NCBI GenBank assembly: GCA_009602735.1
Contig: WELA01003463.1
Coordinates: 34,720 to 90,251, forward strand
Origin: Mesotaenium endlicherianum
Taxonomy: Eukaryota
Direction: 5' to 3'
Length of the DNA stretch: 55,532 nucleotides
Each line of letters begins with the position of its first letter. Within the stretch, counting starts at the first letter, position 1. Below the pieces are notes generated by a model. That model did no database searches and was not told the DNA's origin. It saw only the letters and a program-made list of their open reading frames with translations. Made by a program: the position numbers and the translations under genes. Shown here one piece after another: positions 1,883 through 39,220 of this stretch.

Positions 1883-1926
<44 letters not shown>

Positions 1927-8712: not shown

Positions 8713-8715
<3 letters not shown>

Positions 8716-8762
<47 letters not shown>
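8716..8762. repeat. (AT)n microsatellite
   Basis: Direct reading. Confidence 0.95.
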
Positions 8763-8764
<2 letters not shown>

Positions 8765-9187
8765 CCGATCAAAAGTAGCTGTCGACGCCTCATGCCAAGT
8801 ACCCCTTTCCATATTGAATATTTCATACAACATACAGCATTAGGCTCATTTGTCACGATAACTTCCAGGCTGGGCTAACCCCATTTTGAAGCACAAGGGC
8901 TTTCTTAGTTTGGGGGGGTTATTTAACAGCTAGTAACGTATCATACTGAGTGACGCTGTTCTGTAGCAAAGGACATTCGACATGGGGGTGCTTTCTCATC
9001 GCCCACCAAATCGCCAGATCAGGCCAAATCAACCTGCAAAAGACCATAAATTATTGTACATCTTAGAAAGGGGCAAAAGCCTATGCACTTTACTATTTGC
9101 GTATTTTGCGTACAACGATATAAAAAGACCCTTCTTTTGGTCTACATATGCACTCTTTGCGTAGCCCCAATCATTACACTTTTCATT

Positions 9188-9760
9188 CACTAAGGAAATA
9201 TTGTGGAATATTAACTTCGGCATATTGGTGGAAGGTACATTGGGACTTCACTTTTGTATGCCACCTAGAAAGTAATTCTGGTGGGTCACGACTTCCGCAT
9301 AGGACAATAAAGAGATTGCCAAGGTGCTTTGCGGTTTCAGTTATGGCGCAACATTAGAACCACCATTGACAAAAGTGAAGTGGGTACTTTACTTTAGCAT
9401 ATCACTAGAAATGTTGAGGGATTTAGCCAGCTACTTTTTTTGGCGTACTATCCTAGGAAGTTATTTGGCGGCTCAATTTTTGGTGTAACACCTCAGCAAG
9501 TAAATTGACGGCGTACCTAAATCGGCGGTTGGCGCCTCACTTTCCGTGTGCCGCTAAGAGTGAACTTGACAGTTCGTTCTTGGCGTATTACTAGGAAATA
9601 AGTAACTACCGCTATTTGCATACCACTAAAGCGGAACTTAAACGATACTTCCCTGTTTGCGTACCACTACTAGTTACGCGGTGGTCACGATAACTCGTCA
9701 TTGTGCCTCATCCAGACAGTAACTTGACGTTTGACTCTGCAAAATTGTTTACCACCATGC
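9188..9760 (+). mobile_element. Possible end of a decayed CACTA/EnSpm DNA transposon (subterminal repeat array)
   Basis: Begins CACTAAGGAAA at 9188, followed by about 8 degenerate copies of a GGCGYA..CACTAG(R)AA-like motif (e.g. near 9345, 9398, 9441, 9581, 9617, 9659). No partner end or transposase was found. Confidence 0.3.
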
Positions 9761-11835
9761 AGGATGTAACTTGGCAACTCAGTAGGGCAACCATCATCGT
9801 CGCTCTAGCTCCGACCTATATCACCTCACGAGTGCTTAGGACAAGCTCATGACACCTTACATACTCGGTGCGTATTGTAAATTATGAGGGGACCGACAAT
9901 TTTCCCCTCACAGCGTGCACCCGAACAATTGCAACAAAAAATTAAGCTTCGCTATAACGCTCGCAGTCGACGCACTGACTTCCCCCCCTCCCTCCCTCCC
10001 TTCTCCACCATCCCTTCTCCCTCCCTTTTGCACCCTCACTCTCTCTAACATCCTCATAACAAGCATGCGGCAATGGCTGCAACCACAACGAGCGGCCGTG
10101 GCTGCCCCTCAGCATGCGCTCCCAACCTTTGAGCCCCCCAACACAATTAAGGAGCGAGAGCGCCCTCCTTCACACCTCCATCACGAGCTACCTAGCGGCC
10201 CACGCGAGGCTTTGCCTCGCTTCTCCTCACCATGGCTGTTTATGGAAAGCCTCAAGGGTGCATTTTGTGAGCGAAAAAGGGGCCTAGTTTTTGGCGAGGG
10301 TCTGATTTATAGTGGTCGCCGAAGGGCGGGCCGCGGAGAAAAGGTTCATGACGATCGAACGCTTTTGCGTCGATCCAGGTCGTACGCATAGACACACAAT
10401 TTTAATCGCACGTACAAGCCGGAGGTCACACAACCTATGGACCTTACTGATTTTCCCCTCACAAAAGTTACGCGTGGGCACCTCATTGAAGTCAACAAGC
10501 TCAAAGTTTGTAGCAAGATGCAATGGAGAAAGTGTTTTTACTGGGTTTTGGGTGTGGTGCGTGGTCCTCTAAGTGCACCCATGGCAAGCGTGCTAGTTAG
10601 CCAAAGCAGTGCTTGGGCCATTCTTCTAATTTGAGTCTTCAAGTATGAGGTTTGAACTCCATGCGAGAAACCTTGAGCCTGAACTTCACTCGTTTTAGAC
10701 GTTATCTCTGATGTAGCAAGCAAAAGGAGCAGAGGCCAGGGAACCCACACTGAGTTACCCCCTGGAGTTACTTCCCGTCCCCACCCCTCCCAAACCCCCA
10801 AGCTGCCCACCACTTTGGCTGCTTCCACCCTCTAACCTCAAAGCTATACTGTTGTTGTGCTCTTTCATGCTTTTGGTTGCCATTGCAGGTTGGCTCGCAG
10901 GCTCGTTGACTCGCACTGGCAGCCCAACTCTATGAAAGCGCTCTTGTCCCGAGGCACTATGTGCCAATCCTGTGGCCTGCTCGGGTTGAGCAAAAAGATA
11001 AAAGAAAAGACGAGGTCTTCTCTAGTGTTGCAACAAAGAAGCTCGTATTGTCATTGTCCAACTCTCTCTGTGTCTCTGCTTTTGCGTGTACCTACAACCC
11101 TCAGCCTTTTGCCCCACTAAGATTTTCTCTGCCTCCTCTCCGTTCTGGCCCTGGCCCCTACGGCCGCCCCTCTGTCCCCCCTCAGTTGTGCAACAGCAGC
11201 CATGGATGCGCGTTTTTAGGTTCGACAATCTTGCTTTCTTTTGGTTGTCATCCTCAGATTGTGTATGTAGTCACCGTTTGTAGCATCTATCACTATAAAT
11301 ATGGATGAAATGATGGAGAGTCAATGCGGACATGTAGGACTCCTATCTTCTTTTGAATGTTTGATGGGTTTGCTAGAGACAGAAACATATTTGTATTGGC
11401 AAGCATTGAAGGTTTGAGGCCTTGCTTTGGACAAAGATCCAGCAGTGACAACCTCAGGTTTTTGGTGTAAGAAGTGGTCCAAGCGGGTTCATTGCCCGGC
11501 AAGCTGAACCTGCTGGCTTGAACACTTGCAAGGTGCAGCACTGCATACGATTAAGAATTTTCACTATTTATTGGTGTTCATCACTTTCTCCTCAATATCC
11601 CCGCTAGCCTTTTAGCAATCCTACCTAAATCTAAGAGGTTTGGCATTATGTGTTACTGCTAGAGTTGTGAGACTTTTACAGAGTGGAGTTACAAGCGTAG
11701 TTGCAGAAAGTTGTAGCTTGAAATTGTAACTTGATATTAATTTATTTTTGGGATCCACCATAGACTAACCAATACAACTCAAATAATTTATACAACATAT
11801 GTATTATTACAACATTCTTGTGATTTGTGTGGCGG

Positions 11836-12056
11836 TGTCGTGCCTAACAGCGTCGGACCCCTGGCACGTGCGTAGCTTCTCAGCACGTGTGCCTTCAACC
11901 TGGTTGACGTGTCGGTGCGTTGCTGCTCGTGGGAAAATCGACCGAGTTAATGGTCCCCTGCACGTGTGTCAGTGACGGCAACCGGTTTCTCATTCTACCT
12001 TACCAACACTTAGTGGAAATTTCAAAAAACTTATCTCATCCTCAGCTTCCCTTACA
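11836..12056 (-). repeat. Element A repeat X, terminal copy (221 bp)
   Basis: Near-identical to 13278-13497; reads TGTAAG...CACGACA on the - strand. Confidence 0.92.
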
Positions 12057-13274
12057 AGAACAGAAGTGTCTTACTTCCACACAGGCTTTCGCCCAAGTTG
12101 AGGGTCTACAGAATAAACAAGTTTTGTGGTTTGCAAAAATCATATCTAAGCAGCTTAACAGGCAATGCCAATTTCAGAGAAAATTGCCCTTCAAGGCTTT
12201 TGCTTAACTTCCACAAGTCACAGCTTACAAAACTCTGAAACTGCACATCTATGCTGGCCTGGTCTGAGCTCTTTACTCAACACCGCGCCTTAACAGCTCT
12301 TCACTGCTCGGTTGGGCTCACTCAGTTCTTCACTGAGAGCTTTCCTTGTTAAGACTACTCTTGCTATCAGCAATTCAACAATTGGGACTTCTGAGAACTT
12401 AGAAACTAACATAGTACTCACCATTTTAAGTCTCCCTTGCACGCTTGTGGCATTTGACCCAAATCTGTGCTAATCTCCTAGCAGATTCTAGTTTTGCAGC
12501 TCTCTACTTTCTACCAGCGAGATCCTCCCTTGGGAACTCCTGAGGTCTCACCTTTCTATGATACCCTTTAGGAAGAAATCTTCCAGCGTCGGCAGAAGCG
12601 TGGCGTCTCGGTTCTTCTATGGCCTTGGGAACTCCTTCTTCTTCGTGCTCCCTCCGCTTCTTCCTTTGACAACGATGCGAGCAAGAATGAGGCAGCTACA
12701 GGCAGGACTCGTGCCTTTCACAGGCACCACACATTATCCTCTCTTGAGAATGCCAGTGCTTAGTCACAGTGCTTAGCTTGGATGCCATCCTTACCTAGCA
12801 GCTCTCACACAGCTTAGGAGTTGTCATTCCGCATGCATGCATGCCTTGGGATTGTCGCGCGTGACTGCTTAGCCCTTCAGCTGACAATCATGCCTATGTG
12901 GCCGGCTGACAGCGTTTAGAATGAACGCCCAAGCCGTGACTAGTCACCAAAGGGTCTCGGCCGAGGTGGCACACAACGCTTCTGCAACATCCTTGCTGTA
13001 CTTGGCTTAGATAACCAATTGATAAGTACCTTTCCGGGCACTTGCTGGTCCCACTCCTAGCCTTTTGGCTGACAACTCCGTCCAAATCCCCATCCATCCC
13101 TGGGTGTGGGTTTGACGTGTCGTGACGACTTTGACAGTGATAACGACTTTGACATGACCGCTGACTGAGATCACTCGGTCCTTTGGTCGGTTAGTCAACG
13201 CTGACTTCCCGTACCTGGGCGACCGTGGCTTGCGCTGTACGTGCGGTACCGTCAAACGGGTAGCAGTCGCGACA
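12057..13274 (-). repeat. Element A repeat Y, 3' copy (1218 bp)
   Basis: Near-identical to 22628-22772 plus 29073-30145, which also total 1218 bp once the chromovirus and one TSD copy are removed. Confidence 0.92.
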
Positions 13275-13277
13275 AGC

Positions 13278-13497
13278 TGTCGTGCCTAACAGCGTCTGAC
13301 CCCTAGCACGTGCGTAGCTTCTCAGCACGTGTGCTTTCAACCTGGTCGACGTGTCGGTGCGTTGCTGCACGAGGAAAATCAACCGAGTTAATGGTCCCCT
13401 GCACGTGTGTCGGTGACGGCAACCAGTTCCTCATTCTACCTTACCAACACTTAGTGGAAATTTCAGAAAACTAATCTCATCCTCCGCTTCCCTTACA
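13278..13497 (-). repeat. Element A repeat X, internal copy directly after the PPT
   Basis: Matches 11836-12056; separated from Y by AGC (13275-13277). Confidence 0.92.
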
Positions 13498-13509
13498 CCC
13501 CTCCCTTTC
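13498..13509 (-). promoter_or_regulatory. Polypurine tract of element A
   Basis: GAAAGGGAGGGG on the - strand, directly followed by TGTAAG; identical in element B. Confidence 0.85.
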
Positions 13510-13543
13510 AGCTGAGGCGTCCCTGCCTTTCCGCTGAAAGCTT

Positions 13544-16500
13544 CTATTTCGTGGCCTTGTGGCTGGGGTTTTTAGGAAGGCAGTCAGGACATTCCCATTG
13601 TCCTGCCATAATCTCCTCTTCACCAATGCAGAAGGTGTGCCAACGGGCACTACACTTATCACAAGTTACTATTGCTTCTTGATCATCCCGCACTTTGCAG
13701 CTGGCACAAGGTGTGGCTGGCACCAATTCCTCGGGCACAGTCTTAACCGTAGGATCGACATTAGGCAAGTGGCACAGCGAGCAGTTCTGCACGTGATCTC
13801 TCGTGGTCTTACCATCAGAACCTTCCAGTTCCAACACACCATTGTCGAATGCATGTTTCACGCGTAAGATCACTGCACCTGAACTGGTGTCAATGGTGGT
13901 CTTGGTCTGGCGCTTGCGGTAGACGAAGTCTCCTTCTTGGATCTGCGTCATTTGCAGGCGGTAGCTCCCGTCTCGCGTCCTGGCGTAACGCTGTGTGTCT
14001 CTTTTCTGTGCAATTTTCAGATTGTCCAAGGCAGCAGGCATCATGTTCTCAAATAACACCTTGCGGCGTACCATGACCTTTAGCAGTTCATCAGGGTTGC
14101 CCAGGTCTTTCACCTGCTCAATCTCCTGCTTGATGCTGCTGAGCATAACTGGACTTCTGCCAAACAGAATTTGATAAGGCGAGTAATTTGCCAAAGCAGC
14201 TTGCTTGCTAAATCTGTAACCCATAATCAGCCATGGCAGGGCCAAATCCCAATCACGCTTGTCATGCTCAAGGCAAAATTTGCGCAAAGCAAACTTTATG
14301 GTTTGCACCATCCTTTCTGCTAGGCCATCCGCCTGTGGGTGATCTCTTGACGTAGTGCGATGGTCAATGAAGCATCTGTCCAAGAGTTTCTGAAAGATCC
14401 TTGGAACTCAGACTCTTGGTCTGTCAGCACTTCTGCTGGAGCTCCATGACGTACAATCACACCGTTGAGAAGCACTCCCGCGGTCCCCAAGCTTTCCTTA
14501 GCAGTTAAAGGTACAACCTCTATCCACTTAGAGAAATGCTCAATCATGACCATAATGTACTTGTTACCTCGTTTGCACAGCGGTAGCTCTCTTGCGAGAT
14601 CGCAGCTCCATCGATAGCCTAGGCCCATGATTGGCAGAGGTTGCAGGTGTGGGTGTTGCTGCGTGAAACCAGCCTTAACGCGATCACAGCTTTTGCAGGC
14701 CTTGATCACATCCTCACACTGTTGCTTCATGCCCCTCCACCAGTAAGACAGCTCCAAAAGACTATATGTCCTCTTGACACCATAAAGTCCAGTGTTCTCG
14801 TGCATTTCCTGCACCAGAGCTCGCCTTTTGGTGGGTTCTGGCACCAACTTCTCCTGACCAGTTTCTTCAATCTTGAAGAGGTTATTGCGTTTCTAGCAAA
14901 ACCGTTTAGCTCGATGGCTCACCTGGTCTTTTTCTTTCACCGATAATCCTTCCATGTGGACTCTTGTCTTTGGCCAATGCATAGTGGTTTGATCTTTCTA
15001 GATCTCTGGACTGAACAGGGGTAGAGGCTCAGCTTCTCCTGACGCTACCATTCTAGCCATTTCGGCCAGACAGGCTGCCAATTCTGCTGGGCTGCTCGGA
15101 TCTTCAGCTTCTTGAGCTCCCGTACTGTTGTCTGCGGATGGGTCGGGATTCCTGCTGAGTCCATTGGCGTCTTGTTGAGTATACCTGCTCGATTTATCAC
15201 TGTCATCTGGTACTCCTAGAGCTTAAGAGCCCAGCGAGCCAATGTACCAGTGAGGTCTCCATTCTTCATTAGCTAGAGTAATGGCGAGTGATCTGTGATC
15301 AGCGTGGAGGGTCTTCCCCATAGATACTCTCTGAAATGTGCGACAGTCCAAACCACTGCCAGCAGCTCTCCTTTGTAGGACGAGTAGTTGCTCTCCGCGC
15401 GGTTGTTAGAGCGTGAGGCATAGGCAATGACGTACTCCTCTCTAGGACTTGCGGCCTGAGCGAGTACTGCGCCGATTCCCACACGACTCCAGTCGGTGTG
15501 TAGACTGAACGGCTTGGAGTAGTCGGGCATTCGCAAAATTGGGGCCGTTACCAGCCGCTCCTTGAGCTCGTTCATGGCCTTCTCCTGGGCTTCCGCCCAC
15601 ACGAAAGGTACGTCCTTTTTCAGGAGTTTTGTCAGGGGTTTAGCAATTTTGCTACAGTCCTTCACAAATTTACAATAGTATCCGCTTAGTCCTAATAGGG
15701 CTTTCAGCTTAGACACATTCGCCGGTGCAGGTGTCTTGTAAATGGCTTCAGTGTTTACAACCTGAGGGGACATAGCATTGTTCCCAATCTCATGTCCTAA
15801 GTAAGGCACATGTGCCTCAAAGAATCTGCACTTTCCAAGGTGCAGCGTCATCTGGAATTTCTCCAAGCGTTGGAACACTTGTTCCAAGTGCTCGAGGTGC
15901 TCTTCTATGGACTTGCTGAACACCACCACGTCATCAATGTATGGTGTTGCAAAATCCAGCCCCTCCAGCACTTTGTCCATAGTCCTCTGAAAGATGGCTG
16001 GGGCATTCTTCAGCCCAAGCGGCATTCCCGTCCATTGCCAAAGTTCCCTTTGGGCCCAGAAAGCGGTCTTACCTCGATCGTCTGTTTTCACAAGGATCTG
16101 GTTGAAGCCTTGGCGTAGATCGATGATACTGAACACTTTCCCGGTGATAGCAATTGCAAAGATCCGCTCTGGTGTAGGCATCACATAGCTATCTGGCTCC
16201 GTGTGAAGATTCAGTCGTTTGTAGTCTCCACACATACGAGTGGCTGTATAATTGCCAGCCTCATCCTTCTTGGCAACTACTACTGTGGGAGCTCCATGTA
16301 CTGAGGTTGATTTCTCAATCATGCCAAGCTTGTGCAGCTCCTAGCAAGTTTTCTCCACACAGTCCCATTCGGTCTGACTGAGCTTATGGGGCCCAAGTCT
16401 GACTGGTTTATCAGTAGTTAGTGTGATCTCACACACACTGGCAGTGGTTCTACCAATCTCCTCTTTGGTAAAAGCAAACACCCTGCGGTGCTTCTTCAGC

Positions 16501-19500
16501 AGCCTTTCTACTTGTGCTCTCTGTTAGGCTTAGACCATTTTTCAATGGTGAAAACCTCAGTTTCCAGCTGCTTTTCCCCAACACAGACATCCAGTAGTTG
16601 CTACTCTTTGGATTCAGGTGGGGGCTTTTTGCCCTCATCCTGACCTTCAAGCTTCTCTGCTTGATTGTTAGGAGGTGGAGTGGCAGGCTTCGTAGCTTGC
16701 TCCTCCGCTGCTTTAGGCTTGGCTGCCTGCTTCCTAGGCTTCTTACCTATTCCGATGGATCGTCGACACTCGTGTTGAGTGGGGTATGTCGAACGCCTTT
16801 GGATGGGCTGCCTCAAGAACCTTTCTTCCTTTGCAGCAATTCAGCTAGTCCCTGTTCCTCCCTCTTCACGTGGCGGGGGCGGGTTTGGCAACGACCACCC
16901 TGCTCGATCTGCTTTGGGGTCAATTGTCCAACCCCATTCGCGCTCAATAGTAGTAATGCGCGCAACGGATGTGTCAAATTCCTCCCTGGCTGGTGGCGTA
17001 ATCGTCCATGCTTGTGTCAAAGTCTGGTGTCTTTGAGCCGCAGCTAGTTGTGCGTATACAGCATTTTCTGCTGTCAAGCGGCTTATGGTGCTTCTCAGCT
17101 CTACCAGTTCCCTTCCAGAAACTGCAGATGCCCTAGGAGCTGAACTGTCCTTTTCCCACGTTCCAGTGGATGACGGACGCACCATGGGAATGTGAATTTC
17201 CAGTGCCATGGCTTTGCGAATCAAGCCATCCTCTCCTTCTCTCTGCAAAATCTCCAGAATAGGTTGCGGAGGTGGAGCCATGGTTCCTTTTGGAACTCCT
17301 TCTCTCTATGCTGTTCCCCTATACTTGAGATAACGCATCAGCATCCGCCTGAAAGGTGCATTCCCTTCCCGGGCCACCTTTCTTGGTCTGCTTGCGCGAC
17401 CGCGAGGATTACCTTGTGTTGGTTCCACCTTAGCGGTATAGGCAGCCACTTCCTGCGGCTGTTGTATCTGATGGGGGATAGCTTTTGGTGCTGGCAAATT
17501 GGCGGTTGGAGTGCTGGACGTAGGTGACCTCAAATCGTTGTATAGATTTGATGGGCTGGGCCCCTCCATTATCAAGTGGTCGGTCACCCAGTCATCCGTC
17601 CTGAGCTCTTGTAGCTCCAACAGATCCAGCTCTGGAGTAGGAAAACGTGGAATCTTCCTGAATCTCCTCTTCATTGGTGACTGACGGCAGGTCAAACCCT
17701 GGAAGGTCTGGCATTTCTGCGTCATCTTCAGCTGACGTCTCCACACCAGGTGGTGGCGGCTCTTCATCATTATCTGTGTTGAGGTTCGCCAAATTGACAA
17801 TGGCTGATTGCAGCGTGCTTGCTGCCTTAGCCACTTCCTTTCCCTTGTGCTGTCGAGCGTGTGCTTCCAGCATCTGCTCGATGATGTGCCTTGTAATGGA
17901 TTCAGCTGTTTGACTAGCTGAACCCTGCTGTTGCCTCTTAGCCTGCGGCTCTGGACTCACCAAAGCAGGTGTTGTAGACAATTTCTTGTCCAACTCCTCC
18001 TGGCGTTCTTCGAATATCACTTCGAGACATATGGTCTTTGCAGACCCTCCAGAATCTCCTGAATTCTGGCTACTCTCTTCAGCCCATTCACCAATACTGG
18101 CGTTCTTGCTCTATTGCTTGGTTTAGATAATGTCCAATTTCTTTAGGCGTTGGCTCAGGATTCTTCTTCTCAGACTCTTTGACATGTCTTGTAACGGCGC
18201 TTGCTCTGGTGAAGATGATAGACACTTTTGGTTAGCTTCCCAACTACTTGAGCTTTCCTGCCAGTAGTCTCCGCGCCCAGCTGCTCTTGGGCTGAGGTTG
18301 GTATCATACCCTGATCTGGCACCTTCTGGAGTCTCCTTACGTCTTGATGTCGTGGCTCCGAGGGGTGAGCTCCCAAACATCTGGCTGTGAGTGGCGTTTC
18401 TCACAGATGATGGGATGTCCTGCGTATCGTTTTCTACTCTTGGCAGCGGCGTTGCCTGCTCAGGCGCCTGGTCCCCCATGGGTGTATCTTCTCTTTCCAA
18501 AGGTGCTTTTTATTCATTGGTCCGGTTATCAATCCAGTCCAACAGATCCTGGCATCTCCTAAATTCAGCCACCCTAGCTTGCCTGAGTGCTCTGTCTCTG
18601 GCAGCTTCCGCTGCGTCTCTTTGCACACCGTATTCTTCTTGTTGCTGGTGTGCCGTCCTGATAGCTCTTTGATCACATGTTAGCACCACATTGACTCCAA
18701 TTGTCACTGGTCTTGTCCTCGGCATGGGCTTGTCAGTGAAAGTCAGCTGCTGCCACGTCATGATTGTTTCCACCAACCAAGTCGTAGAGTGCTGCCCAAT
18801 CATGTTGCCAAAAATCTTTGCAGCTTCATCTGACCCTACAGCACCAGCTATATGCCGAGCTATGTTGTCGGGTATTCTAAGGCATTTGCCCTTCTCTACC
18901 GCAGTAGGCTCTCTCCAAACGGCGTTTCTTTCATGCATGTCTTTGACCATTCCTGGTCCACCTTCTACGAAGGCTCGGGATCTTGGATATGCTGTGAAGG
19001 TTGGCAGTACCACCCTTGGCTGACCTGGTTCGTTGTGACACACTATGGATAGGAATCCCTCCTGGCCACTGGTCTAGTATGCACCGCCAGCGCCTCTTCC
19101 ATTATCAATGCCGTTGGTGATCGCCGTGTAATGTCCTCCATCTCCCTCAGGACCTCAATAGACATGCCGTTGGTCCAAAATATCCTGGCCCTATGGGATA
19201 ATCCTCCGTGCTTGGCGTCGTTGATTAGCACATGATGGCCCAAAGTGGAGTCAAAAATCAGCCATGGTTCTCCCGGCTTCATCTGCTTGTAATCCATTCC
19301 TGGATGCACATTCTCAATCACAAACACTGGTGGGTAGTAGTGCTGTCGTTCCCGCAGCATGCTGATGATTTTCACCATCCATCCCCAGTGTTGTGCTCGT
19401 GGATCACTGAATCTCCTCCGGTTTCCAGCATGAGGAAACGGTTGACAAGGAAATCCAGCAAAGATTCCGTCAATCCTGTAGCCATACAGGTGTTCAGGCT

Positions 19501-22500
19501 TCACATCAATAATGTTGCCTCCGACGATGCGCTCGACATTGCTATATGCGGGCGCCAATCCTTTATAATGATGCATATGCCGCATCTGACTCATGACTTA
19601 TTTAAATGCTAGAAAAGCGTGGTCGTCATTGTTCACATATAGGACTTTGGCCACCTGTATTCCTCGCTGGATAAATGCTATGGTCCCAGATCCAAGTCCG
19701 GCGAATAATTCCAACACCATTACTCCCCTTTTGCGAAAAGGATCTTCCATCCTGACAATGCCTTGCGGCAGCGGCTCAACTCCAGGCATCAGATTTGCAA
19801 TGGAGGTAATTGGGTAAGGTACTGGCAGCAACTCTTGCGGGCCGCGGTCCCTATTACTCACAGTTTCCAACTGCTTCATGATCTGGGGTTGCCATACCAA
19901 GGGTGTTGGCATGTTGATGTTTGTATAGCCTTCCTCTTCTTGCTTCATGATGTTGTCGGCGGCTTCTAGGTACCTGTTGTTAACGCAGCAATCTAGCAAT
20001 CCGTAGTTTGATTCTCCTGTGCAAACCATCTTCACAGAAATTTCTCCTGCCGGCTGCCAATCTGTTGACTGGTAAGTCACCCTTTGCTTTCGCAGATCAA
20101 TGACCATACCCAAGGGAATCAATGCTTCTGTTCTCAAGAGAACATCATAGTTCTCTGCCTCCGTTACTGTGCACTCCATAAGTGTGATGCCTCTTCAGGT
20201 TTCCCTGGATTTACTGTGAATTTCACAGGCTTGCGAATAATCCCACAAGACTTTGAAACTTGTCCTGAGGCAGTTCTCAACTGGAAAAGACTCTCTTTCA
20301 AGTCCCTTTCCGTCAATCCTAGAGCTTTCACAGCTCGCTTTCCCCAAATGACCGGCTGTGCGCCTGTATCCAACATGATGTTGGGAGCTGCCCAGTTGTT
20401 GAAGATTAATGCACCATCCCTATTTTGCACTCTCACGATGCTAAAATTGGTGGGCAATGAGGCGCTATTTGCACCTTCCTCAGCCATATCAAGCTGATGT
20501 CCGACTTCTTCAACCGTGAATGGGTAAGTGATATGCAAATCAGCGAGAGAAAGCAAAGAAGCATGCTGGATCCGGTGTTCCACCAGGGCCTTCAGCTTCT
20601 CCAGCGAAAAACTAAATGTCTTGCGCGACACGAACCTGGTTTGTCATAGCTGCGAGATCTCGTTTTCATCCAGAGTGATCCGGAAAGTCCGAGGAAGCTT
20701 CCCAGCATTCCTTGGCACCAGACAATTGTGATCTGCTTGCTCGGCAGCCGTTGCATCCACAGCCTTTTCAGACAGCCTCTTCTCGCCCTTGCAGACGGTC
20801 TTTTCTGCAATGTCTGCATCATAATAGACATTGGGCGCATTTAGTTTTGCAAACTGCGCTTTCAACTCAGCGATTTCTGCACTCGTAGCTTCGAACTTCT
20901 AGTTACCCTTGCGGTTACCAGAGCCACCTTTTTCTTTCTTTTTTTCCTTGTTTGCCTCTTCATGGCAGCATTTGCCCATGGCGGTTTTAAATTTGGGTTC
21001 TTAGACCAGCACTCATCTTCTGAATGTCCCTTCTTGCTGCAATGTGCACATATCTGTGCCTTGCTAGCAGATAATTGCTTAGCATCTGGGTACGAACAAT
21101 CCCTCTTCTGATGTCCTGATTTTCCGCAATTCCAACAGCTCTCTGCTGTTTCAGCAGTGTTGGCATGCTTAGCAAACTTATTGAAAGACCCGCTCTTTTT
21201 CTTAAACTAAAAATTAGAGCTGTTGACCTTAGGCGAAGGATATTCCTCCCTCCTCTCAGGAGCCATAAGCGTCCTGGAAGCCTCTTTGTACCACACTTTA
21301 CCTTCTTCGACATTGCGTGCTATTTCAGCCGCCTCGTCGATGTCCCAGTCAATCCCGTGCTTTGCGGACAGATGTGGTCTGACTTCACGATCTGTTTCCT
21401 TGCCCAAGCACAACAAAAACTTGTCAGCCACTATTCTGGGCTCGTATATTGTTGCCTTTTTGGCGAGGTCTACCAATCTGGATTTAGCCTCAAGACTGTC
21501 TCGTTCTTCTGACGAACAAAATGCACATAATGGTGCATCTTAAGACTGCAATCCTCTGGGAATCGTGCTTCAAGCAACTTAAAGAAGCGGCGCAGACAAT
21601 GCTTGGGGTCTAGCTGGTCATTCCCAACCTCCATATCCTTTCAACAACTAGCCAAGGCTTGCACATGGCTTGCCTCTGTCGTGGCGCTATCGCCTTGCTG
21701 ACCATGGAGAGGTGCAGCTCTGCGTGTTACTCGTTCCTGAGCATTAGCAATCTTTTCGGACAGTTCTGCACACAATTTTCGCAACTCTACGACAGAGCCG
21801 GCATCATCGCTCTGAGTAGCAGCCCTTTGCTGACCCTCAGTGAGTTGCCTCATAGCCTCAGTTAATTCTTGTGTTAGTGCAGCTAAGTCTATGCTCTCAA
21901 CAGTTGTCGCTGTTCTTCCTAAAGATAGAGCAGACATTCGGGCTTTCGCACCCTTTTTCTGGATTTTCAAATCTCTTGCCCTTTTCTGTTCTGCAAAGGT
22001 CCATTCCTGGGTGAGATCCTCATCCTTCCGGAATTGGCGATATAGCAGCAGGACATCCTTGTCCAAGTACTGAACCAAGCCTATAAATGCGACAGATTGC
22101 GTATTAGAAGAATCCTTCCGAATCTTCTCAAAGAATTCTGCACAATAGATCTCATCAAACTCTTTGAAAGTGAGACCGTTTGCGCTGGTTCGTTCGCTAA
22201 AGCACTTTGCAGACAGCTTGAACTTAGGATTTTCATCCCGATCATCACCGACCATTTCGAACGGTGACCAGGACTCACTGACTCTTCCCCACACGTCTTG
22301 CTCTCTGCCCAAATCAGGTGCAAAGGCTCGTGTGTTATCCGGGTTCTCACCGCTTGCGGAGATATGGCGAGACTCGTCTCTCGACGGTTGCTCACTCCAC
22401 CGGTTGTCAGTATGCTCAGACGTCTCACTTCCTCGTGGACTCTGGCTAGAATCAGAATCTTCTACAGGCTCCGTAGAGTGGAAGAGTCTTCCACTCCTCA

Positions 22501-22507
22501 ACCGCAT
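13544..22507 (-). pseudogene. Element A Gag-Pol-DNMT polyprotein, broken by many stops and frameshifts
   Basis: Starts MRLRSGR (22507). Protease MLDTGA (~20370). DNMT 18750-19730. RT IDLRQGFNQI / YIDD and RNase H TDWS..E..TDH (15273-16322). Integrase WSCDL / LTDQ / DGLAER (13544-14847). C-terminal PHD. Confidence 0.9.
18750..19730 (-). pseudogene. C5 cytosine DNA methyltransferase domain of element A (frameshifted near 19598 and 19043)
   Basis: Motif I VLELFAGLGSG, IV IFAGFPCQPF, VI FVIENV, VIII HRARIFW, X IFGNMI. Confidence 0.88.
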
Positions 22508-22613
22508 ATACAGTTGAATTCTCCGGGTCCCCTTCCAGGTTGAACACCGGCAGCCTTCACAGGCCTCAATCCTCAACTGACTTGGGAATTCTTGTTCACA
22601 TGAACCAATCAAC

Positions 22614-22627
22614 AAGTTCTCAGAAGT
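22614..22627 (-). promoter_or_regulatory. Putative self-priming primer-binding site of element A
   Basis: ACTTCTGAGAACTT (- strand) abuts the 5' Y repeat and is complementary to a 14-mer within Y (12387-12400 exact; 29258-29271 one mismatch). Confidence 0.7.
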
Positions 22628-22772
22628 AGGACAGAAGTGTCTTACTTCCACACAGGCTTTTGCCCAAGTTGAGGGTTTACAGAATGAACAAGTTTTGTGG
22701 TTTGCAAAACTCACATCTAAGCAGCATAACAGGCAATGCCAATTTCAGAGAAAATCGCCCTTCAAGGCTTTC

Positions 22773-23267
22773 TGTAGTGAAATAGATAGATAAAGTACTT
22801 AGTAAAATAGAATTCTTTATCTATTCAAGACAAGGATCTTTGAACACAAGTGGTAGCTTCTTGAAAGAGAGATGGCTTCTTGATAGTTACTATATTTCTG
22901 GAATGTGGCAAGTACAAGAGTGATTCTGGAAAGTCTTTCTATGTTCTAGCTCTTGTTTATATACTTGTTACATAAGTGATTTTTAGGAAGGTGTATGTTG
23001 ATGTGTTGGCACCCAACACATCCCAAAACTTGCCACCTCTTTCTAGAATAATGTACACATGTCCTTTTGACCTAAAAATGGCACATTTGATTTTTGCCAC
23101 ATGGAGTTCTTCTAGGTCTTTCCTCTAACTTCGAAAATGCCTTGGAAGGTTCAAAGGACATGAATCAAGTCACTAGAGTACCTATTCACACTTGAATCCA
23201 CACCATTCTACTCCAAATATATTTGTGAACATTAAAATATATGCAAACTAAAACTCAAATCACTACA
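22773..23267 (-). repeat. 3' LTR of chromovirus C (495 bp); PPT GGGGGGATAA at 23268-23277 on the - strand
   Basis: Near-identical to 28531-29067; TG...CA termini with a 7-bp inverted repeat. Confidence 0.95.
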
Positions 23268-24032
23268 TTATCCCCCCGACAGAAAAAGCGACGTCTCGGC
23301 GCGTCAAGTAAGATCTTACACATGTGGAGCAGACTAGTCAACAGCTTCAAGTCAGATGCCACACATGTGAAGAGGATTAGTCCAAGGCGCCAAGTCAGGT
23401 GCTACACATGTAAGGTGGACTAGGCAAGGTCGTGGGTGGTGTGACCTTATTGGCTAGCCTACTCCTTGATAAAGAAAATTGTATAAGTTGGCCAGAATCT
23501 GCCACAAATTCAAACATTCATAGCGTCCACAAAATTGCTTCAAATCTAAAAATTTGAGTGCCAGACGGACCGCGTCAAAGAATTTTACCGGGTCACCAAA
23601 TTTGAGAGCATTCAAATTCCTGGAGTGTCGTTGAGAGCTGAGAGAGTAGGCACTCCTCCAAGTCTGTGCAGAAACTTCTGAATATCATAAGTCCTTCTAT
23701 ACTTCTCCAAATGCTGCAAACTAAGTCTCAAACTGGGTGCTGTAAGATGTTTTACCAGAGTCTTGAGTTTCAGAGCATTCCAATTTCAAGGGAGGGCAGA
23801 ATGTCAGAAGGCATATTCTGCCCTAACAATGCCAGCAGCCTGACCCCCTTCTACTTAGAGCATCATATCTCTCTCACCAGTGCTTCAAATTCAACAAACT
23901 TGGACTCTAAACGACCGGCTACTCATGGACTACAGCCAAGTAAAATTTCAGGATTTATTATGCAAAGACCTATCACCAGTAGCAGTTTTAGTTTTCCATT
24001 CAGAAACTGCAAAAAGAGAAGAGTGTCTAATG

Positions 24033-27000
24033 TCAATTTTTCCTCTTTCTTGTTCTTGCAGGCTGCCTCCAAGGGGTCTTCTGCTGCTTCTTGATGGTGG
24101 CAGGCTGCCTCCCTGAAGTTATCGGGCTCCTAGTAGAGAGACTTGGGGCTGGTCCAAGATGGGGGTTGGCGGCATGGAAGCGCTTCAACTTTCTCTGAAC
24201 TTTGTCAAGGTAGTGCGCCGCCACCCAACTATTCTCCGAATCTGGATATCCTTTCCACTTGATCAAGTATTGCTGCTGTCCCCTGAAATTTCTCATAGCC
24301 ACTATGTCTTCCACTTTGTACTCCAAATAATCATCCACTATTGTTGGGGCTGGTGGGGTTGTCACACGTCCTGGGAACTTGTTGTCGGGTTGCACATATG
24401 GCTTGAAGAGGGAAGCGTGGAATACGGGGTCGATGTGCATAGTCTTAGCTTGAAAGTTTTAGCTTGAAAGCAACGGGGTTGACTTGCTGGATAATCTTGA
24501 AGGGTCCCAAATACTTAGGAGAGAACTTGCTGTCGGCAGGCATGTTGTTCAGGGAAATATTCTTAGATGATAGTAACACGTTGTCACCCACTCTGTACGT
24601 AATTTCTCTTCTGGATCTGTTCGCCACTCTTGCTTGAGCATCTTGCGCGTGTTGTAGAGCTTTCTTCGCTGCTGTAAGGGCTGCTTCTAATGTCTCTTTA
24701 AAATTTGTGGCTGCAGGTACTTCATCATGGCCAGCCGTGAAGTTCAGCGGCGTGGTTGGATGGAAGCCATAGTTGAGGAAGAATGGGGACTCTTGGGTAG
24801 AGGCCTGCGTCGTGTTGTTGTAGGCAAACTCCTGGGGGGTCAAGTACATGTCCCAATCTTGCTCCAGAGTAGACACGTAGGCCTTTAGAGAGGTCTTTAG
24901 AGTACGATTCATACGCTCGGTTTGCCCATCTGATTGCGGGTGGTAGGCAGTGGACATATCCAGCGATGTACCCAAGTTCTTGAAGAGATTTGTCTAGAAA
25001 TGTCTTGTGAATCTTGGATCTCTATTCGACACAATTCTTGATGGTAGTCCATGGAGTCGGAAGATGTTGTCAAAGATGAGTCTTGCAAGTTGTGGTGCTG
25101 TAGCCTTAGTCGTCGTGGGAATAAAATGAACCATCTTGGTAAGTCTGTCCACCACCGTGAGTATTGCATTATGGCCTCGAGGTGTCACGGGCAGGTCCAC
25201 GATAAGGTCCATTGAGATGTCCGTCCATTGTCTTTCGGAAATTGGTCATGGTTGGAGGAGTCCTCCCGCCTTTTGCGATGATGGCTTGATTCTTTGGCAT
25301 GTGTCACAGCTCCTGCAGTACTCCTTGACTTGCTTAGACATGCCTGGCCAACAATAAGTTCGGGCTAGAACGCCCGTGGTCTTTAGGATTCCAAAGTGTC
25401 CTCCAAGAGGGTTGTCGTGTGCTTCTCGTAGAAGCAAGAGCCGGAGGTCTAAGTCATTAGGAACACATCTCTGGCCCGTNNNNNNNNNNNNNNNNNNNNN
25501 NNNNNNNNNNNNNNNNNNNNNNNNNNNNNNNNNNNNNNNNNNNNNNNNNNNNNNNNNNNNNNNNNNNNNNNNNNNNNNNNNNNNNNNNNNNNNNNNNNNN
25601 NNNNNNNNNNNNNNNNNNNNNNNNNNNNNNNNNNNNNNNNNNNNNNNNNNNNNNNNNNNNNNNNNNNNNNNNNNNNNNNNNNNNNNNNNNNNNNNNNNNN
25701 NNNNNNNNNNNNNNNNNNNNNNNNNNNNNNNNNNNNNNNNNNNNNNNNNNNNNNNNNNNNNNNNNNNNNNNNNNNNNNNNNNNNNNNNNNNNNNNNNNNN
25801 NNNNNNNNNNNNNNNNNNNNNNNNNNNNNNNNNNNNNNNNNNNNNNNNNNNNNNNNNNNNNNNNNNNNNNNNNNNNNNNNNNNNNNNNNNNNNNNNNNNN
25901 NNNNNNNNNNNNNNNNNNNNNNNNNNNNNNNNNNNNNNNNNNNNNNNNNNNNNNNNNNNNNNNNNNNTCAAGGGTCTTGCTGTAGATAAGGATGTCATCG
26001 ATGAATACCACCACAAATCTGTCCAACATGGGCTGAAATATGGTGTTCATCATAGTCATGAAAGTTGCTGGCGCGTTGGTGAGTCCAAATGGTAGGACCA
26101 TGAACTCAAAATGTCCATATCTTGTCCTGAATGCCGTCTTCTCTATGTCCGGTTCTGCGATGCGAATCTGGTGGTATCCGCTCCGTAAGTCAATCTTTGT
26201 GAAGTACTTGGTTCCAACCAGCCGGTCCATGAGCTCATCCATGCGCGGCAGCGGGTATCGATTCTTGATGGTGATCTTGTTGAGGGCGCGATAGTCCACA
26301 CACATCCTCAAGGTACCATCTTTCTTCTTGACAAATAGCACCGGGGCTCCAAATGGCGACTTGCTAGGTCGAATGAAGCCATGCTCCAGTAGCTCCTTGA
26401 TTTGCTTCTTGACTTCGTCTAGCTCCGTGTATGACATTTTGAACGTAGGCCGAGAGATGGGCTTGCTTCCGGGCTCCAACTCTATCTTGTGGTCTACGAA
26501 TCTTTTGGGGGGTAGGCCCTTGGGCAATTCCGGGGAGAACACTTCTTTGTAGTCCTCAAAGACTTCTTGTATCTCCTTGGGAACGGGGCTGCCTTCTTGA
26601 CTCTCGATGTCTTTCTTGATGTCTTTTGGCGTGATCAAGGCCAAAAGAAGCTTGTGTCCCTTCCTCACAAGTCTCTTGAGTTGGAGGGCGGACAATAGTA
26701 TCTTGTGTGCCGGCTTCTTGATGTCTTGGGTCTGGATATTCTGGATTGCGCGCAAAATACAGATTCTTGAAGTGAGTTCATTCTTGATCTTGATAGTACC
26801 GTCTTTCCAATCAACTTGGGGGTTGTGCTTGGTCAACCAAGGCGTCCCTAGGATGACGTCGTACTTGCCCAATTGCATGGGGGAGAATACTACTCTATCC
26901 TTGAAGGACTTGATAGAGAGTGCCAAGGAGTACGTCTTCTTGGAAGGGGTAGTATAGGAGAATCCATCGGGCATCATAATCTCCTCGTCGTGGTCAAGAG

Positions 27001-27090
27001 TTCGCATAGTAATACCGTGCTTGGTGGCAAAATCTGCAGCAATGAAGTTGCCTTGAGCTCCGCTATCCACCAAGATGTGGACCTTCTAAG
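24033..27090 (-). pseudogene. Chromovirus C pol (protease, RT, integrase, chromodomain), disrupted; RNase H hidden by gap 25480-25967
   Basis: [67 protein letters not shown] (catalytic Asp apparently changed to Asn), QSDGQTER, YLGPFKI; chromodomain EYKVEDIV..YLIKWKGYPDSENSWV. In-frame stops at 24994 and 25246. Confidence 0.9.
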
Positions 27091-27214
27091 TTCTCTCCTC
27101 CAAGGTTACCTCTCAAACTCATTGGGGCTGGGACGTCGTCTTCAACGGGGGTCTCCACCTCACTTGTCTTGATGCCTTCTCGTGAAGTGGGTCTTGGGGT
27201 GGTAGGCTCCAGGC

Positions 27215-28493
27215 CTACCGGCGCTGTCCATTTTTTGACAACTTTTTGGGGCATGAGAGTGCACGATGGCCCTTTTCCTTGCAATAAAAGCATAGTCCAG
27301 CCGTCATGAGAGCTTCTTTTTCAGCCAGGGAGAGTCTTGCTTTCACTCCTTGCTGGTTTCCTGCATCATAAGTGTCATTGGAGGGTCTTCCACTCTTCCG
27401 GGCAGCCGCGGGGTCCCTTTTAAGAACTCCAATTTCCATGGGTGTGGGTCCAGATTCGGATGTGGAAGGGGTTGCATACACCCGCGTCGCCGGTACCCGT
27501 GAAGATGAAGGCACGGAGTGCTTGAAATCCAAGGTATCCACCTTGGGCCACTTCAATGAACTTTGAGAAGTCCGTCAAGTCGCGTAATTCCACTTCCTTT
27601 GCCACCTTGGGTTTGAGGCCAAAGATGTAGCGGTCAATCTTCTCCTTGAGAGACATGTTGGGGATCTCAAGAGTGAGGGCGTGAAATCTGGATGCATACT
27701 CTTGAACGGACGTCGTTTGCTTGAGATGGTGGAGCTTTCCTTGTTCAATCTTCTCCGCATTGATGGGCATGAATTGCTTTTTGAGGGCCTCACGAAAATC
27801 TGCCCATCTTGCATATGATGGTGGGGGCTCTTGGCCGAGCATGGGGTGCGCCATAGCTTGATATATAGCCGCTTGATAGTTACGCCACCATGATGTTGCT
27901 GCTCCTCTAAGTAAGGTAACGGCAAAGGGAACGTAGTCCTCCTCGGGTACTTCAAGGAATGCGAGGTACGTCTCCACTTGGTAGAGCCATAAATTCAGGT
28001 TGGCACCTTTCCCGGGGTTGAAAGTGTCGGGTTTGCCGGGCTTGATGAGTTTCCTTGCTCTCGTTGGCTCTTGTGGAGGCGCTTGAGCCGGGGCTGGATT
28101 TTGAGCATTGCTCGCAATAGGGGCAACCATGGCAGCCATAGCTTCTCTTGACGCTTGCACGGTTGCTTCATAGGTGGCCAAGCCCACTTGGTTGTGGACG
28201 GTCATTAGGAAGGCTGCCCACTCATTTGCGGGAACTCCTTGTGGTGGGGTCAACTTTGCTATAGCGGCTGCCACGGGATTTGACGGTGCTCCTCCTTGTG
28301 GTGCTTCTTGTTGTTGCAGATTTCCTTGAGTAGGCTCTCCCATCGGCGCTGGAGGAGGGTGTGCTCCTCCTTGTGGTGCTTCTTGTTGTTGCAGATTTTC
28401 TTGAGTGGGCTCTCCCATCGGCGCTGGAGGAGGGTGTCTTGGAGAGGAAGGGCTTCCTTCGAAAGCTTGCTGTTGGTCTTGAGGATCGGCCAT
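27215..28493 (-). pseudogene. Chromovirus C gag (one frameshift near 27556), with CCHC knuckle
   Basis: KPGKPDTF..WLYQVETY..LLRGAATSWW..LKQTTSVQEYASRF..YIFGLKP; CFYCKEKGHRALSC. A 75-bp tandem duplication (HPPPAPMGEPTQxNLQQQEAPQGGA x2) lies near the N-terminus. Confidence 0.88.
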
Positions 28494-28517
28494 CTTCTTG
28501 TGCTACCAAAGTGCCTA

Positions 28518-28529
28518 GATTTGATACCA
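28518..28529 (-). promoter_or_regulatory. tRNA-Met(i)-type primer-binding site of chromovirus C
   Basis: TGGTATCAAATC one base after the 5' LTR; the first 8 nt match the canonical TGGTATCAGAGC. Confidence 0.75.
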
Positions 28530-28530
28530 T

Positions 28531-29067
28531 TGTAGTGAAACAGATAGATAAAGTACTTAGTAAAACAGAATACTCTATTTATTCAAGACAAGGATCTTTG
28601 AATACAAGTGGTAGCTTCTTGAAAGAGAGATGGCTTCTTGATAGTTAATATATTTCTGGAATTTGGCAAGTACAAGAGTGATTCTGGAATGTCTTTCTAT
28701 GTTCTAGCTCTTGTTTATATACTTGTTACATAAGTAATTTCTAGGAAGGTGTATGTTGATGTGTTGGCACCCAACACATCCCAAAACTTGCCACCTCTTT
28801 CTAGAATAATGTACACATGTCCTTTTGACCTAAAAATGGCACATCTGACTTTTGCCACATGGAGTTCTTCTAGGTCTTTCCTCTAACTTCGAAAATGCCT
28901 NGTCTAGGTCTTTCCATTAACTTCGAAAATGCCTTGGAAGGTTCAAAGGACATGAACCAAGTCACTAGAGTACCTATTCACACTTGAATCCACACAATAC
29001 TACTCCGAATGTATTTGAAAACATTAAAATATATGCAAACTAATATATTATAACTCAAATCACTACA
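28531..29067 (-). repeat. 5' LTR of chromovirus C
   Basis: Matches 22773-23267 apart from substitutions, a short indel near the end and a duplication around the single N at 28901. Confidence 0.95.
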
Positions 29068-31184
29068 CTTTCGCTTAACTTCCACAAGTCACAGCTTACA
29101 AAACTCTGAAACTGCACATCTATGCTGGCCTGGTCGGAGCTCTTCACTCAACACCGCGCCTTAACAGCTCTTCACTGCTCTGCTGGGCTCACTCAGTTCT
29201 TCACTGACAGCTTTACTTGTTAAGATTACTCTTGTTATCAGCAATTCGACAATTGAGACTTTTGAGAACTTAGAAACTAACACAGTACTCACCATTTTAA
29301 GTGTCCCTCGCACGTTTGTGGCATTTGACCCAAATCTGTGCTAATCTCGTAACATATTCTATTCTGCAGCTCTCTACTTTCTACCAGCGAGATCCTCTCT
29401 CGGGAACTCTTGAGGTCTAACCTATGATACCCTTAGGAAGAAATCTTCCAACGTCGCTAGAAGCGTGGCGTCTCGGTTCTTCTATGGCCTTGGGAACTCC
29501 TTCTTCTTCGTGCTCCCTCCGCTTCTTCAACTTCCTTTGACAACAATGCGAGCAAGAATGAGGCAGCTACAGGCAGGACTCGTGCCTTTCACAGGCACCA
29601 CACATTATCCTCTCTTGAGAATGCCAGTGCTTAGTCACAGTGCTTAGCTTGCATGCCATCCTTACCTAGCAGCTCTCACACAGCTTAGGAGTTGTCATTC
29701 CGCATGCATGCATGCCTTGGGATTGTCGCGCGTGACTGGTTAGCCCTTCAGCTGACAATCATGCCTATGTGGCCGACTGACAGCGTTTAGAATGAACGCT
29801 CAAGCCGTGACTAGTCACCTGAGGGTCTTGGCCGAGGTGGCACACAACGCTTTTGCAACATCCCTGCTGTACTTGGCTTAGATAGCCAATTGATAAGTAC
29901 CTTTCCGGGCACTAGCTGGTTCCACTCCTAGCCTTTCGGCTGACTACTCCGTCCAAATCCCCATCCATCCCTGGGTGTGGGTTTGACGTGTCGTGACCAC
30001 TTTGACAGTGATAACGACTTTGACATGACCGCTGACTGAGATCACTCGGTCCTTTGGTCGGTTAGTCAACGCTGACTTCCCGTACCTGGGCGGCCGTGGC
30101 TTGCGCTGTACGTGCAGTACCGCCAAACGGGTAGCAGTCGCGATAGCGGTTGCACTTCGTGGACCAAACCTGATTTTTGGAAATAGGAGTACATCACTCT
30201 GAGGCTGTGCAAGTGGTGAAGCGGCCTAAATTGCTCAAACAATTTGCAAAACAAAAGTTTGGTCCCGCCAACGGTTATAAAAGTCGTCGACGGGCTTTGT
30301 CAATCCAATATGTATGTTAAAAGTTAACCACGTTTGAGAACGCGCATCCAACAGCTTTCATGAAATTTGTTTGTGATGTATTTTAGTGAAGGTTAGAATT
30401 AAAAGGGTGCAATTTCTTCAACAATTTGAGTGACCAATTTATCCCCCCCACAATCTGCCCCATGCAATAAATTAACAGTATTGACATCGAATAAACTAAT
30501 GATGTATGGGATAACCAAAAGTTTTGAATCTAAATTTTTTGAATTGCTGGTTGCACGTTCGAAGCAATTGCTAGAAAGAGCAATAAGAACCATAAGAGCA
30601 ATGAGAACCACATAAGATTACTTGGCAACATTCATTGATAATAACGAAGTAAATGCTTGGATATCCAAACGCAATTTCGTAGGGCTGGTGACCCATACGT
30701 ATGTATTGTTGAGAATTTTGATATTAGATGATGCAACAGTGCACCAACAATATGATTAATGAGGAAAATTGCTACTTTGTATGTCCTGTTGCATTTTGAC
30801 ATCACTGTTATGAGGTTGTAAAGTTTTAACCTTTTCTAGAATGGCAATTGTCAAGCTTCTCCCCATGAAGATGGAAACTTCTGTCATAAACTTTTAACAA
30901 GTAAGGTGACGATACCTAGACAAGCATCTCTCTTGAGGTGTTAGATGCGCAAAAACTTGAAAATTAGGTTTGCCTAACCTCAAAATGCGTACAAATTGGT
31001 ACCTGAGAAGAGAAGGCAGGGGTTCAGCAAGAGAGATGGCAGGGCATGGGGGGGAAACTCTCTTCTAGAATCCGGGTGAAATAGCGCCCAAAATTCAAAG
31101 TTTTTAATTAGCGCCCTGAAATCAAAACAACAGAATTAGTACAGTGAATTAGTGACCTTTAATCAGACAAATATGTACTAATAG

Positions 31185-31487
31185 TGTCGTGCCTAACAGT
31201 GTCGGTCCCTTGGCACGTGCGTAGCCTTCCAGCACGCGTGCCTTCGGCCTGGTTGATGTGTCGGTGGCCCTCCTCACGTGTGGCAGACATGGTTGATTGA
31301 CCTTTGCACGTGTGTCGATGACAAGCCTTACCAGGGTTAACCCATCCCTGGGTTCCTGAACTTGCACCATGCAGCCTTGACCAACACTCAGGGTGACGTT
31401 CTCTGTCACCCGGCTCTCACCGTCTGCTTATCCTAAGACTTTAGCAGAAAATTTAAAAATACTTGCCTTGCCTTAATTCCTCTTACA
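31185..31487 (-). repeat. Element B repeat X, terminal copy (303 bp)
   Basis: Near-identical to 36013-36315. Confidence 0.93.
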
Positions 31488-31823
31488 AGGACGGAAGTCT
31501 CTTACTTCCACATAGGCTTTATGCCTTAAGGTTCTTGGGTTCACAGGTGAGCAAATTGTAGTTTGCAGAAATCACACTCTAAGCAGCTTGACATGCAACG
31601 TCAGATTCAAAGAAAATCGCCCTTCAGGCTTTTCGCTTAACTTCCACAAGTCAGCTTACAAAACTCTGAAACTTCGTCTATGCCTGGGTCAAGCTCTTCA
31701 CTGCCAGGCTGGGCTCACTCAGTTCTTCACTGAGAGCTTTATCTGTCAATACTACTCTCTCTCTTCGAGATGCGAATGCGACTTCTGAGAAGTTGGAAAT
31801 CAACACACAACTCACCATTTTAA

Positions 31824-36315: not shown

Positions 36316-36327
36316 CCCCTCCCTTTC
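36316..36327 (-). promoter_or_regulatory. Polypurine tract of element B
   Basis: GAAAGGGAGGGG on the - strand, followed by TGTAAG. Confidence 0.85.
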
Positions 36328-38089: not shown

Positions 38090-38137
38090 CAGCCATAGTA
38101 ATGGTGAGTAATCCGTGATCAGTGTGAAGGGTCTTCC

Positions 38138-39157: not shown

Positions 39158-39220
39158 TTTCCCAATGGCAAAAGTCTCAGTTTCAGGTTGCTTCTCCCCA
39201 ACAAAGGCATCCAGTAGTTG

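Follow-up and report, generated by a model that had tools for sequence, protein, structure and literature searches.

Split direct repeats in a Ty3/gypsy-type element of Mesotaenium endlicherianum point to probable integration from a palindrome inside the long terminal repeat

The window analysed here is a stretch of 55,532 nucleotides from Mesotaenium endlicherianum (contig WELA01003463.1 of assembly GCA_009602735.1, positions 34,720 to 90,251 of the forward strand), and it carries two copies, element A and element B, of a Ty3/gypsy-type retrotransposon whose direct repeats are split into two segments, X and Y. The accepted view of long terminal repeat (LTR) elements and retroviruses is that linear complementary DNA (cDNA) is integrated by its ends, whereas in A and B the inserted ends are not the ends of the reverse transcript. 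We consider it probable, from the arrangement of the parts, that the DDE integrase of these elements cuts a palindrome lying inside the repeat and that the ends of the reverse transcript are joined together, probably as a two-LTR circle. As such, the layout was already known for KnitGypsy-Dnmt3 of Klebsormidium, as far as the accessible account of that element goes, and the proposed mechanism appears strongly constrained by the sequence.

Comparison of the window with itself, together with the junction sequences, placed element A at 11836-30145, where the plus strand reads GCGG, X, Y, AGC, X, polypurine tract (PPT), coding region, primer site, Y, GCGG. The sense strand of both copies is the minus strand, on which both read Y-ORF-X-Y-X (ORF, open reading frame); all parts given below for A and B lie on it, except for the palindromes and target site duplications (TSDs), to which no strand is assigned. 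In A, the TSD GCGG occupies 11832-11835 and 30146-30149. The terminal X (221 bp, 11836-12056) ends on the sense strand in CGACA, the 3′ integration end, and is preceded there by the 3′ copy of Y (1218 bp, 12057-13274). At this Y|X joint (12057/12056 in A), the primer-side end of Y runs directly into the PPT-side start of X, and neither A nor B shows a gain or loss of bases there. An intact palindrome, GACA-AGC-TGTC with a 3-nt spacer (13271-13281), which is a putative integrase attachment site, spans the boundary between the 3′ Y and the X adjoining the PPT (220 bp, 13278-13497; PPT at 13498-13509). The polyprotein region (13520-21961), in the order gag-protease (PR)-C5 methylase-reverse transcriptase (RT)-RNase H (RH)-integrase (IN)-PHD, is decayed by stops and frameshifts, and is followed by the primer-binding site (22614-22627) and the 5′ copy of Y (22628-30145), which bears the 5′ integration end at 30145 and is split by a nested element. 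Once that LTR element (22773-29067) and one copy of its CTTTC duplication are excluded, the 5′ Y also measures 1218 bp, and the base-exact split-repeat layout of the initial annotation, with its coordinates, Y length and GCGG duplication, holds. The right end of A reads GATA instead of GACA, a single C>T change.

Element B (31185-46367; TSD ATAG at 31181-31184 and 46368-46371) has the same layout, with a 2-nt palindrome spacer, GC. It consists of the terminal X (31185-31487), the 3′ copy of Y (31488-36010, interrupted by a DDE transposon), the X adjoining the PPT (36013-36315; PPT at 36316-36327), a polyprotein region with stops and one frameshift (36326-44678), the primer-binding site (45145-45158) and the 5′ copy of Y (45159-46367). 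The intact internal palindrome GACA-GC-TGTC (36007-36016) lies inside the 12-bp palindrome CGACAGCTGTCG. Other copies share these ends. Among contigs from public runs, 42 enter at 31185 from unrelated sequence; position 36010 is where 45 contigs of run X1 and another 14 of run X11 leave the element, and 37 of run X1 enter at 36013, again with unrelated flanks. The exact Y|X joint of B is present in runs X5 and X7. These runs may contain the source of the window itself and are not all independent, and their contigs of this family are too short to span the PPT, X and flank.

Within A, the two copies of X differ at 13/220 positions (5.9%) and the two copies of Y at 56/1212 (4.6%; Fisher p 0.39); within B the values are 11/303 (3.6%) and 35/1181 (3.0%; Fisher p 0.58), a comparison of modest power given that X is short. 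This similarity, which the initial annotation had proposed as its own check, recurred in three full-length related elements (L026, L039 and L070; Fisher p 0.48-0.75), and was thus found in 5/5 elements tested. Between A and B, synonymous divergence (dS) is 0.41-0.90, at a nonsynonymous to synonymous ratio (dN/dS) of 0.11-0.16, across gag-PR, methylase, RT-RH and IN. Since this dS lies far above the 3-6% that separates the repeats within each element after insertion, both lineages have long replicated with this structure, as had been supposed of two subfamilies from the first look at the sequence.

The 14 nt past the 5′ Y are exactly complementary to a site within Y in both A and B, with the flanks diverged on both sides (chance about 5e-6); this site is not of the tRNA type. 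In A it is the exact complement of a predicted self-primer site in the 3′ Y (12387-12400), with TTAAAA 29 nt upstream, and a second copy of the self-primer with one mismatch lies in the 5′ Y (29258-29271); in B it is the exact complement of the predicted self-primer at 45484-45497 in the 5′ Y. A TATA-like box stands about 30 nt upstream of the predicted primer. Priming by tRNA was rejected, and no tRNA gene was found in the window. Four landmarks had been described as kept in A and B: the PPT, the CA/TG site, the Y|X joint and the position of the primer site are indeed conserved, but the site named PBS is self-complementary. Among related loci, primer/primer-site pairs of 10-15 nt were found in 5/8 relatives with a 5′ Y, with a predicted helix probability of 0.69-0.96, and a 12-nt pair, different each time, was seen in six other families, compared with two stray pairs among the ten loci concerned. 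Priming is likely self-priming of the Tf1 type, judging from this complementarity.

The positions of the PPT and the primer site fix the reverse-transcribed repeat, that is the true LTR, as X+Y. The same follows from the order ORF-PPT-X-palindrome-Y-primer site-next ORF in two related loci, L077 and L079. The primer-side end of X+Y carries no CA, and it is at the X|Y boundary that the TG...CA ends of the integration type are found, within the palindrome (CGACA-GC-TGTCG in B; with the 3-nt spacer in A). Two full terminal direct LTRs with TG on the PPT side and CA on the primer side were thus not found, the inserted element ending at the inner palindrome. In locus L077, positions 1-12342 have a 20-nt end overlap and a single X-palindrome-Y repeat, as in a one-LTR ring, which may be an assembly cycle.

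Pfam searches and translation identified a zinc knuckle, protease, C5 cytosine methylase, RT, RNase H, DDE integrase and PHD finger, with both copies broken; in B, the methylase lies at about 41289-42311 and the RT core is partly deleted near 38645. The Pol order PR-RT-RH-IN is that of Ty3/gypsy elements, with the methylase between PR and RT, and the PPT adjoining the 3′ repeat and the TSD within 4-6 bp are likewise of that type. The integrase (rve, E 3.6e-12) retains D240, D300 and E335 of the D-D35-E motif in the segment from B, and is under purifying selection (dN/dS 0.11). The methylase (PF00145, E 2.4e-16) has the motifs FAG, PCQ, ENV and RxR, and its motif HRARLFWTN presumably reflects a resemblance to Dnmt3. 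No tyrosine recombinase was found among 30 ORFs scanned with Pfam.

Related elements were collected as 80 metagenome loci, 41-55% identical in the integrase region. Of these, 50 could be read into the X that follows the PPT (40 distinct loci once near-identical ones are merged), 3 have X cut by the contig end, 1 has the 5′ Y only and 26 have no match to the X/Y probes. Among the 40 distinct loci, 16 read X-palindrome-Y-X, 21 read X and then flank (20 without L033, whose X is cut by another insertion) and 3 read X-palindrome-Y followed by other sequence. The palindrome spacer is 2 nt in 16/16 distinct X-Y-X loci, two of these decayed, and the PPT-side end lacks TG in many of them. In other families, GACAGCTGTC follows the ORF with at most one mismatch in 7/10 loci. 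The three full related elements have 4-bp TSDs (ATCA, ACAT and GCAT/ACAT). At L011:1805, the X end is joined straight to an inverted inner piece of Y, which would represent an insertion into another copy or an autointegration. A search of viral contigs gave one weak match, L081, without the palindrome.

Among relatives, the Y-ORF-X form occurs about as often as the full form (20 vs 16 of 40 distinct loci). Four X-only loci are readable upstream, and two of them, L021 and L034, are Y-ORF-X with perfect TSDs (CCAA and TACA). On the tree of the 40 loci, which is poorly resolved (2/37 inner branches starred), X-only copies are scattered among X-Y-X copies (12 changes vs 12.4 when shuffled), and the nearest-neighbour distances are equal (0.077 for X-only vs 0.075 for X-Y-X, p 0.64). 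Given this scatter and equal divergence, the X-only copies are neither a separate lineage nor a likely product of assembly collapse; the collapse of identical X copies was considered as their main source, and the nearest-neighbour distances make it unlikely.

We then compared the Y|X joints. In the largest related family, 13 joints are readable (L026 was left out for a deletion, L039 as disrupted and L059 as belonging to another family), and at these the Y end carries A (5), AA (1), AAT (5) or AT (2). Given that the primer site of that family begins with AATT, 11/13 joints carry 1-3 extra bases that look like primer remnants. Joint type showed no significant clustering with relatedness (p 0.34; nearest neighbour of the same type in 6/13, p 0.13), and lineage-specific changes 7-13 nt from the joint are common to both copies within A, B and L026. 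With moderate confidence, these sequences suggest that the joint is made anew in each cycle.

These observations can be arranged into a putative cycle. RNA would start in Y about 30 nt below the TATA-like box, and its first 12-15 nt would prime the minus strand at the site beside the 5′ Y, as the conserved complementarity suggests. Reverse transcription, judged from the positions of the PPT and primer site, would then yield X-palindrome-Y-ORF-X-palindrome-Y, and its primer-side Y end would be joined by some route to its PPT-side X start, giving the joint that is seen in the copies. The enzyme that opens the palindrome beside the primer site would be the integrase, cutting each strand just after CA so that the staggered break leaves CA-3′ ends with 2-nt overhangs, and insertion with a 4-bp TSD would give Y-ORF-X-Y-X, whose ends and TSD are those observed. 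With a 2-nt spacer, such a break would produce the ends that retroviral 3′ processing also leaves. DDE enzymes of the IS3/IS911 type open a circle where its two ends abut across a spacer of 2-3 nt; these are DNA insertion sequences whose transposase makes the junction, unlike one carried inside a reverse-transcribed repeat. The Y-ORF-X copies likely arise in the same cycle, from one-LTR circles or when both palindromes are used, and, having no 3′ R region, would be dead ends. More broadly, and only tentatively, we propose a Ty3/gypsy clade of the green lineage in which the ends of integration are uncoupled from those of reverse transcription, the integrase acts as a site-specific endonuclease on an internal palindrome and circles are the normal substrate, one-LTR circles giving dead Y-ORF-X copies and only two-LTR circles giving replicating Y-ORF-X-Y-X copies.

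Several observations weigh against this cycle. No circle, cDNA or cleavage has been observed, and the palindrome spacer is 3 nt in A and 2 nt in all others. The 5′ Y copies of 3/8 relatives have an 8-nt complement only or none, the self-primer copy in the 5′ Y of A carries its mismatch, and the primer helix of B, with a probability of 0.54 on a short RNA, falls to about 0 with 30 more bases, as downstream sequence outcompetes it. Matching reads in two raw RNA runs numbered 48 and 141, most of them diverged, and gave no start or end sites. At the joints, slippage in AT runs could mimic the variants, and the sister pairs L012/L013 and L016/L027 have the same joint type. Two of the four readable Y-ORF-X copies, L010 and L032, have no matching TSD. 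Moreover, a circle with two equal palindromes is expected to give a mirror form as well, Y-X-Y-ORF-X, which was found in 0/4 readable X-only loci; one idea for this bias is that the primer-side palindrome may become double-stranded first.

The same product would result, without a free circle, if the integrase held both palindrome halves of a linear cDNA and inserted them, and host repair then joined the leftover ends. Variable joints fit host end-joining, and Y-ORF-X would arise simply from one half of each palindrome; the data here fit the linear and circle routes alike, but an exact joint in A, B and two further runs is tidy for the repair of a chromosome break, and we regard the linear route as unlikely. 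Slightly less credit is given to a joint that is inherited, with RNA reading into the terminal X and templating or splinting the joint as is thought for PAT/Ngaro, while the integrase still cuts the palindrome. The joints that are exact in the window's family, the full length kept by the terminal X and the two sister pairs just named speak for inheritance, yet joint type does not cluster significantly, the sequence beside the joint matches the 5′ Y and PPT-side X of its own element to within those 7-13 nt, and the extra bases match the primer site. For the Y-ORF-X form alone, a later loss of Y by X-X recombination in Y-ORF-X-Y-X copies is possible but on balance doubtful: it would keep the TSD, as in L021 and L034, and spread the form across the tree in the way observed, but the form makes up half of the loci despite an X of no more than 115-185 bp, and Y-ORF-X copies are no older than X-Y-X copies by the distances above.

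Two further explanations are highly improbable. Nothing was found in favour of separate insertions stacked together or of a one-off rearrangement, and both were rejected on the equal X-X and Y-Y divergence in all five elements, the single TSD round the whole and the presence of the layout in distant families; the initial annotation had already argued against a one-off event, and the shared ends of other copies and the recurrence of the layout in the metagenome relatives bear this out. Insertion by a tyrosine recombinase, as in PAT/Ngaro, would be suggested by their identical A1-ORF-B1-A2-B2 layout (accessible part of PMC4157794). Such a domain is missing from the 30 ORFs scanned, however, the DDE integrase is under the purifying selection noted above, and the 4-bp TSDs (GCGG, ATAG, ATCA, ACAT, CCAA, TACA) are unrelated in sequence.

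The circle route preferred here can be set beside several known systems. A figure legend of de Mendoza et al. 2018 (PMC5890265) describes KnitGypsy-Dnmt3 of Klebsormidium nitens as having Gypsy domains with DIRS-like repeats (A-coding-B-A-B), and A and B share with it both the methylase inside a Gypsy Pol and these repeats. The window's family is another one, and the accessible part of that paper describes no TSD, palindrome, priming, Y-ORF-X form or mechanism. It is also the only source in which we found a Gypsy element with this layout, and no account of a mechanism was found, in a literature search whose coverage excluded Repbase and most subscription journals. PAT, TOC, kangaroo, Ngaro and VIPER have split direct repeats of the same order, but use a tyrosine recombinase according to the accessible part of PMC4157794, whereas A and B have a DDE integrase, protease, PPT, primer site and 4-bp TSD. 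The integrases of foamy virus and HIV-1 act on two-LTR circles by cleaving the palindromic junction (accessible parts of PMC1180852 and PMC4372172), so that a DDE integrase can cut a CA...TG palindrome in double-stranded DNA and integrate the product, as the sequence suggests for A and B. In those viruses, the palindrome is the LTR-LTR junction and the reaction a side path; in A and B, the Y|X junction is non-palindromic and intact, and the palindrome lies 115-300 bp inside, within the LTR, and is used by every copy seen. Self-priming, in which the primer site complements a stretch of the 5′ LTR and no tRNA is used, is described for Tf1/Sushi and Tj1 (PMC4600332) and predicted for plant Tcn1 and TAR (PMC6317226), in the accessible parts of both papers; these have ordinary LTR ends, while in A and B no chromodomain was found and a PHD finger is present instead.

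If the proposed cycle is true, this would be an LTR element that in nature relies on circles for its integration, which retroviruses are known to use only as a side path, and split direct repeats would have arisen here independently. The cycle also hints at how the split repeats of PAT/Ngaro elements may have come about, and the clade would serve as a natural test case for circles as the chief precursor of integration and for the cutting of an internal site by a DDE integrase. Finders that demand two terminal LTRs (among the criteria given in the accessible part of PMC6317226) would miss or miscut such elements. The clade has named relatives from liverworts and from streptophyte and chlorophyte algae: in the integrase region, 40-51% identity was found to Klebsormidium nitens, Calypogeia fissa, Riccia sorocarpa, Closterium, Chrzof1 and Pseudoscourfieldia. 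A K. nitens integrase-PHD protein, P0020, is 49% identical to that of B and is at most a possible copy of KnitGypsy-Dnmt3.

Methylase relatives were found by an alignment query, while a long-frame query gave none; no K. nitens name appeared among the 41 methylase hits, and hits to solved structures were weak and general. The methylase is present in most long related loci, either between PR and RT or between RH and IN. In L052, L065 and P0131, the C5 methylase follows RNase H and precedes integrase, and in the window's family it is found between protease and RT; the domain would have moved or been gained twice. Four relatives carry an extra domain past the PHD finger with methyltransferase-like motifs (L052:10630-11835, L065:10290-11405, L068:1580-2617 and L079:4170-5372), which matched no Pfam family, and P0088 has a weak adenine-methylase hit at the corresponding position (E 0.0027). 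This domain possibly parallels the methylase domain of DIRS/PAT elements.

Both copies have been entered by other mobile elements. The element nested in the 5′ Y of A (22773-29067, minus strand) is a conventional Ty3/gypsy LTR element with TG...CA ends, a 5-bp TSD, CTTTC, and the primer site TGGTATCA; Pfam gave gag, Ty3 capsid and SH3_Tf2-1. Its LTRs differ at 20/495, making it slightly younger than A, in agreement with what nesting requires, and it also shows an indel of 42 bp in the LTR and, at 28286-28437, a tandem duplication of 77 bp. In the 3′ Y of B, a DNA transposon (31824-35165, minus strand; Pfam DDE_Tnp_1_7) sits inside the TTAA of the TATA-like box, with TTAA duplicated. Its Pfam family and TTAA target are those that we take to be piggyBac-like, and it is a multicopy family in the public runs.

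The flanks of B (31100-31184 and 46368-46470) are two halves of another repeated sequence, which has uninterrupted copies in run X1 and is matched by RNA reads; contigs joining the two flanks with a single 4-mer represent the uninterrupted target, itself a repeat copy. A 75-bp sequence occurs at 1851-1926 and 50808-50882 of the window in opposite orientations, and is probably a small inverted-repeat element or a simple repeat. Flanking exons on the plus strand, which suggest a green plant as host, belong to a trichome-birefringence-like gene (PMR5N, PC-Esterase; 47281-52395).

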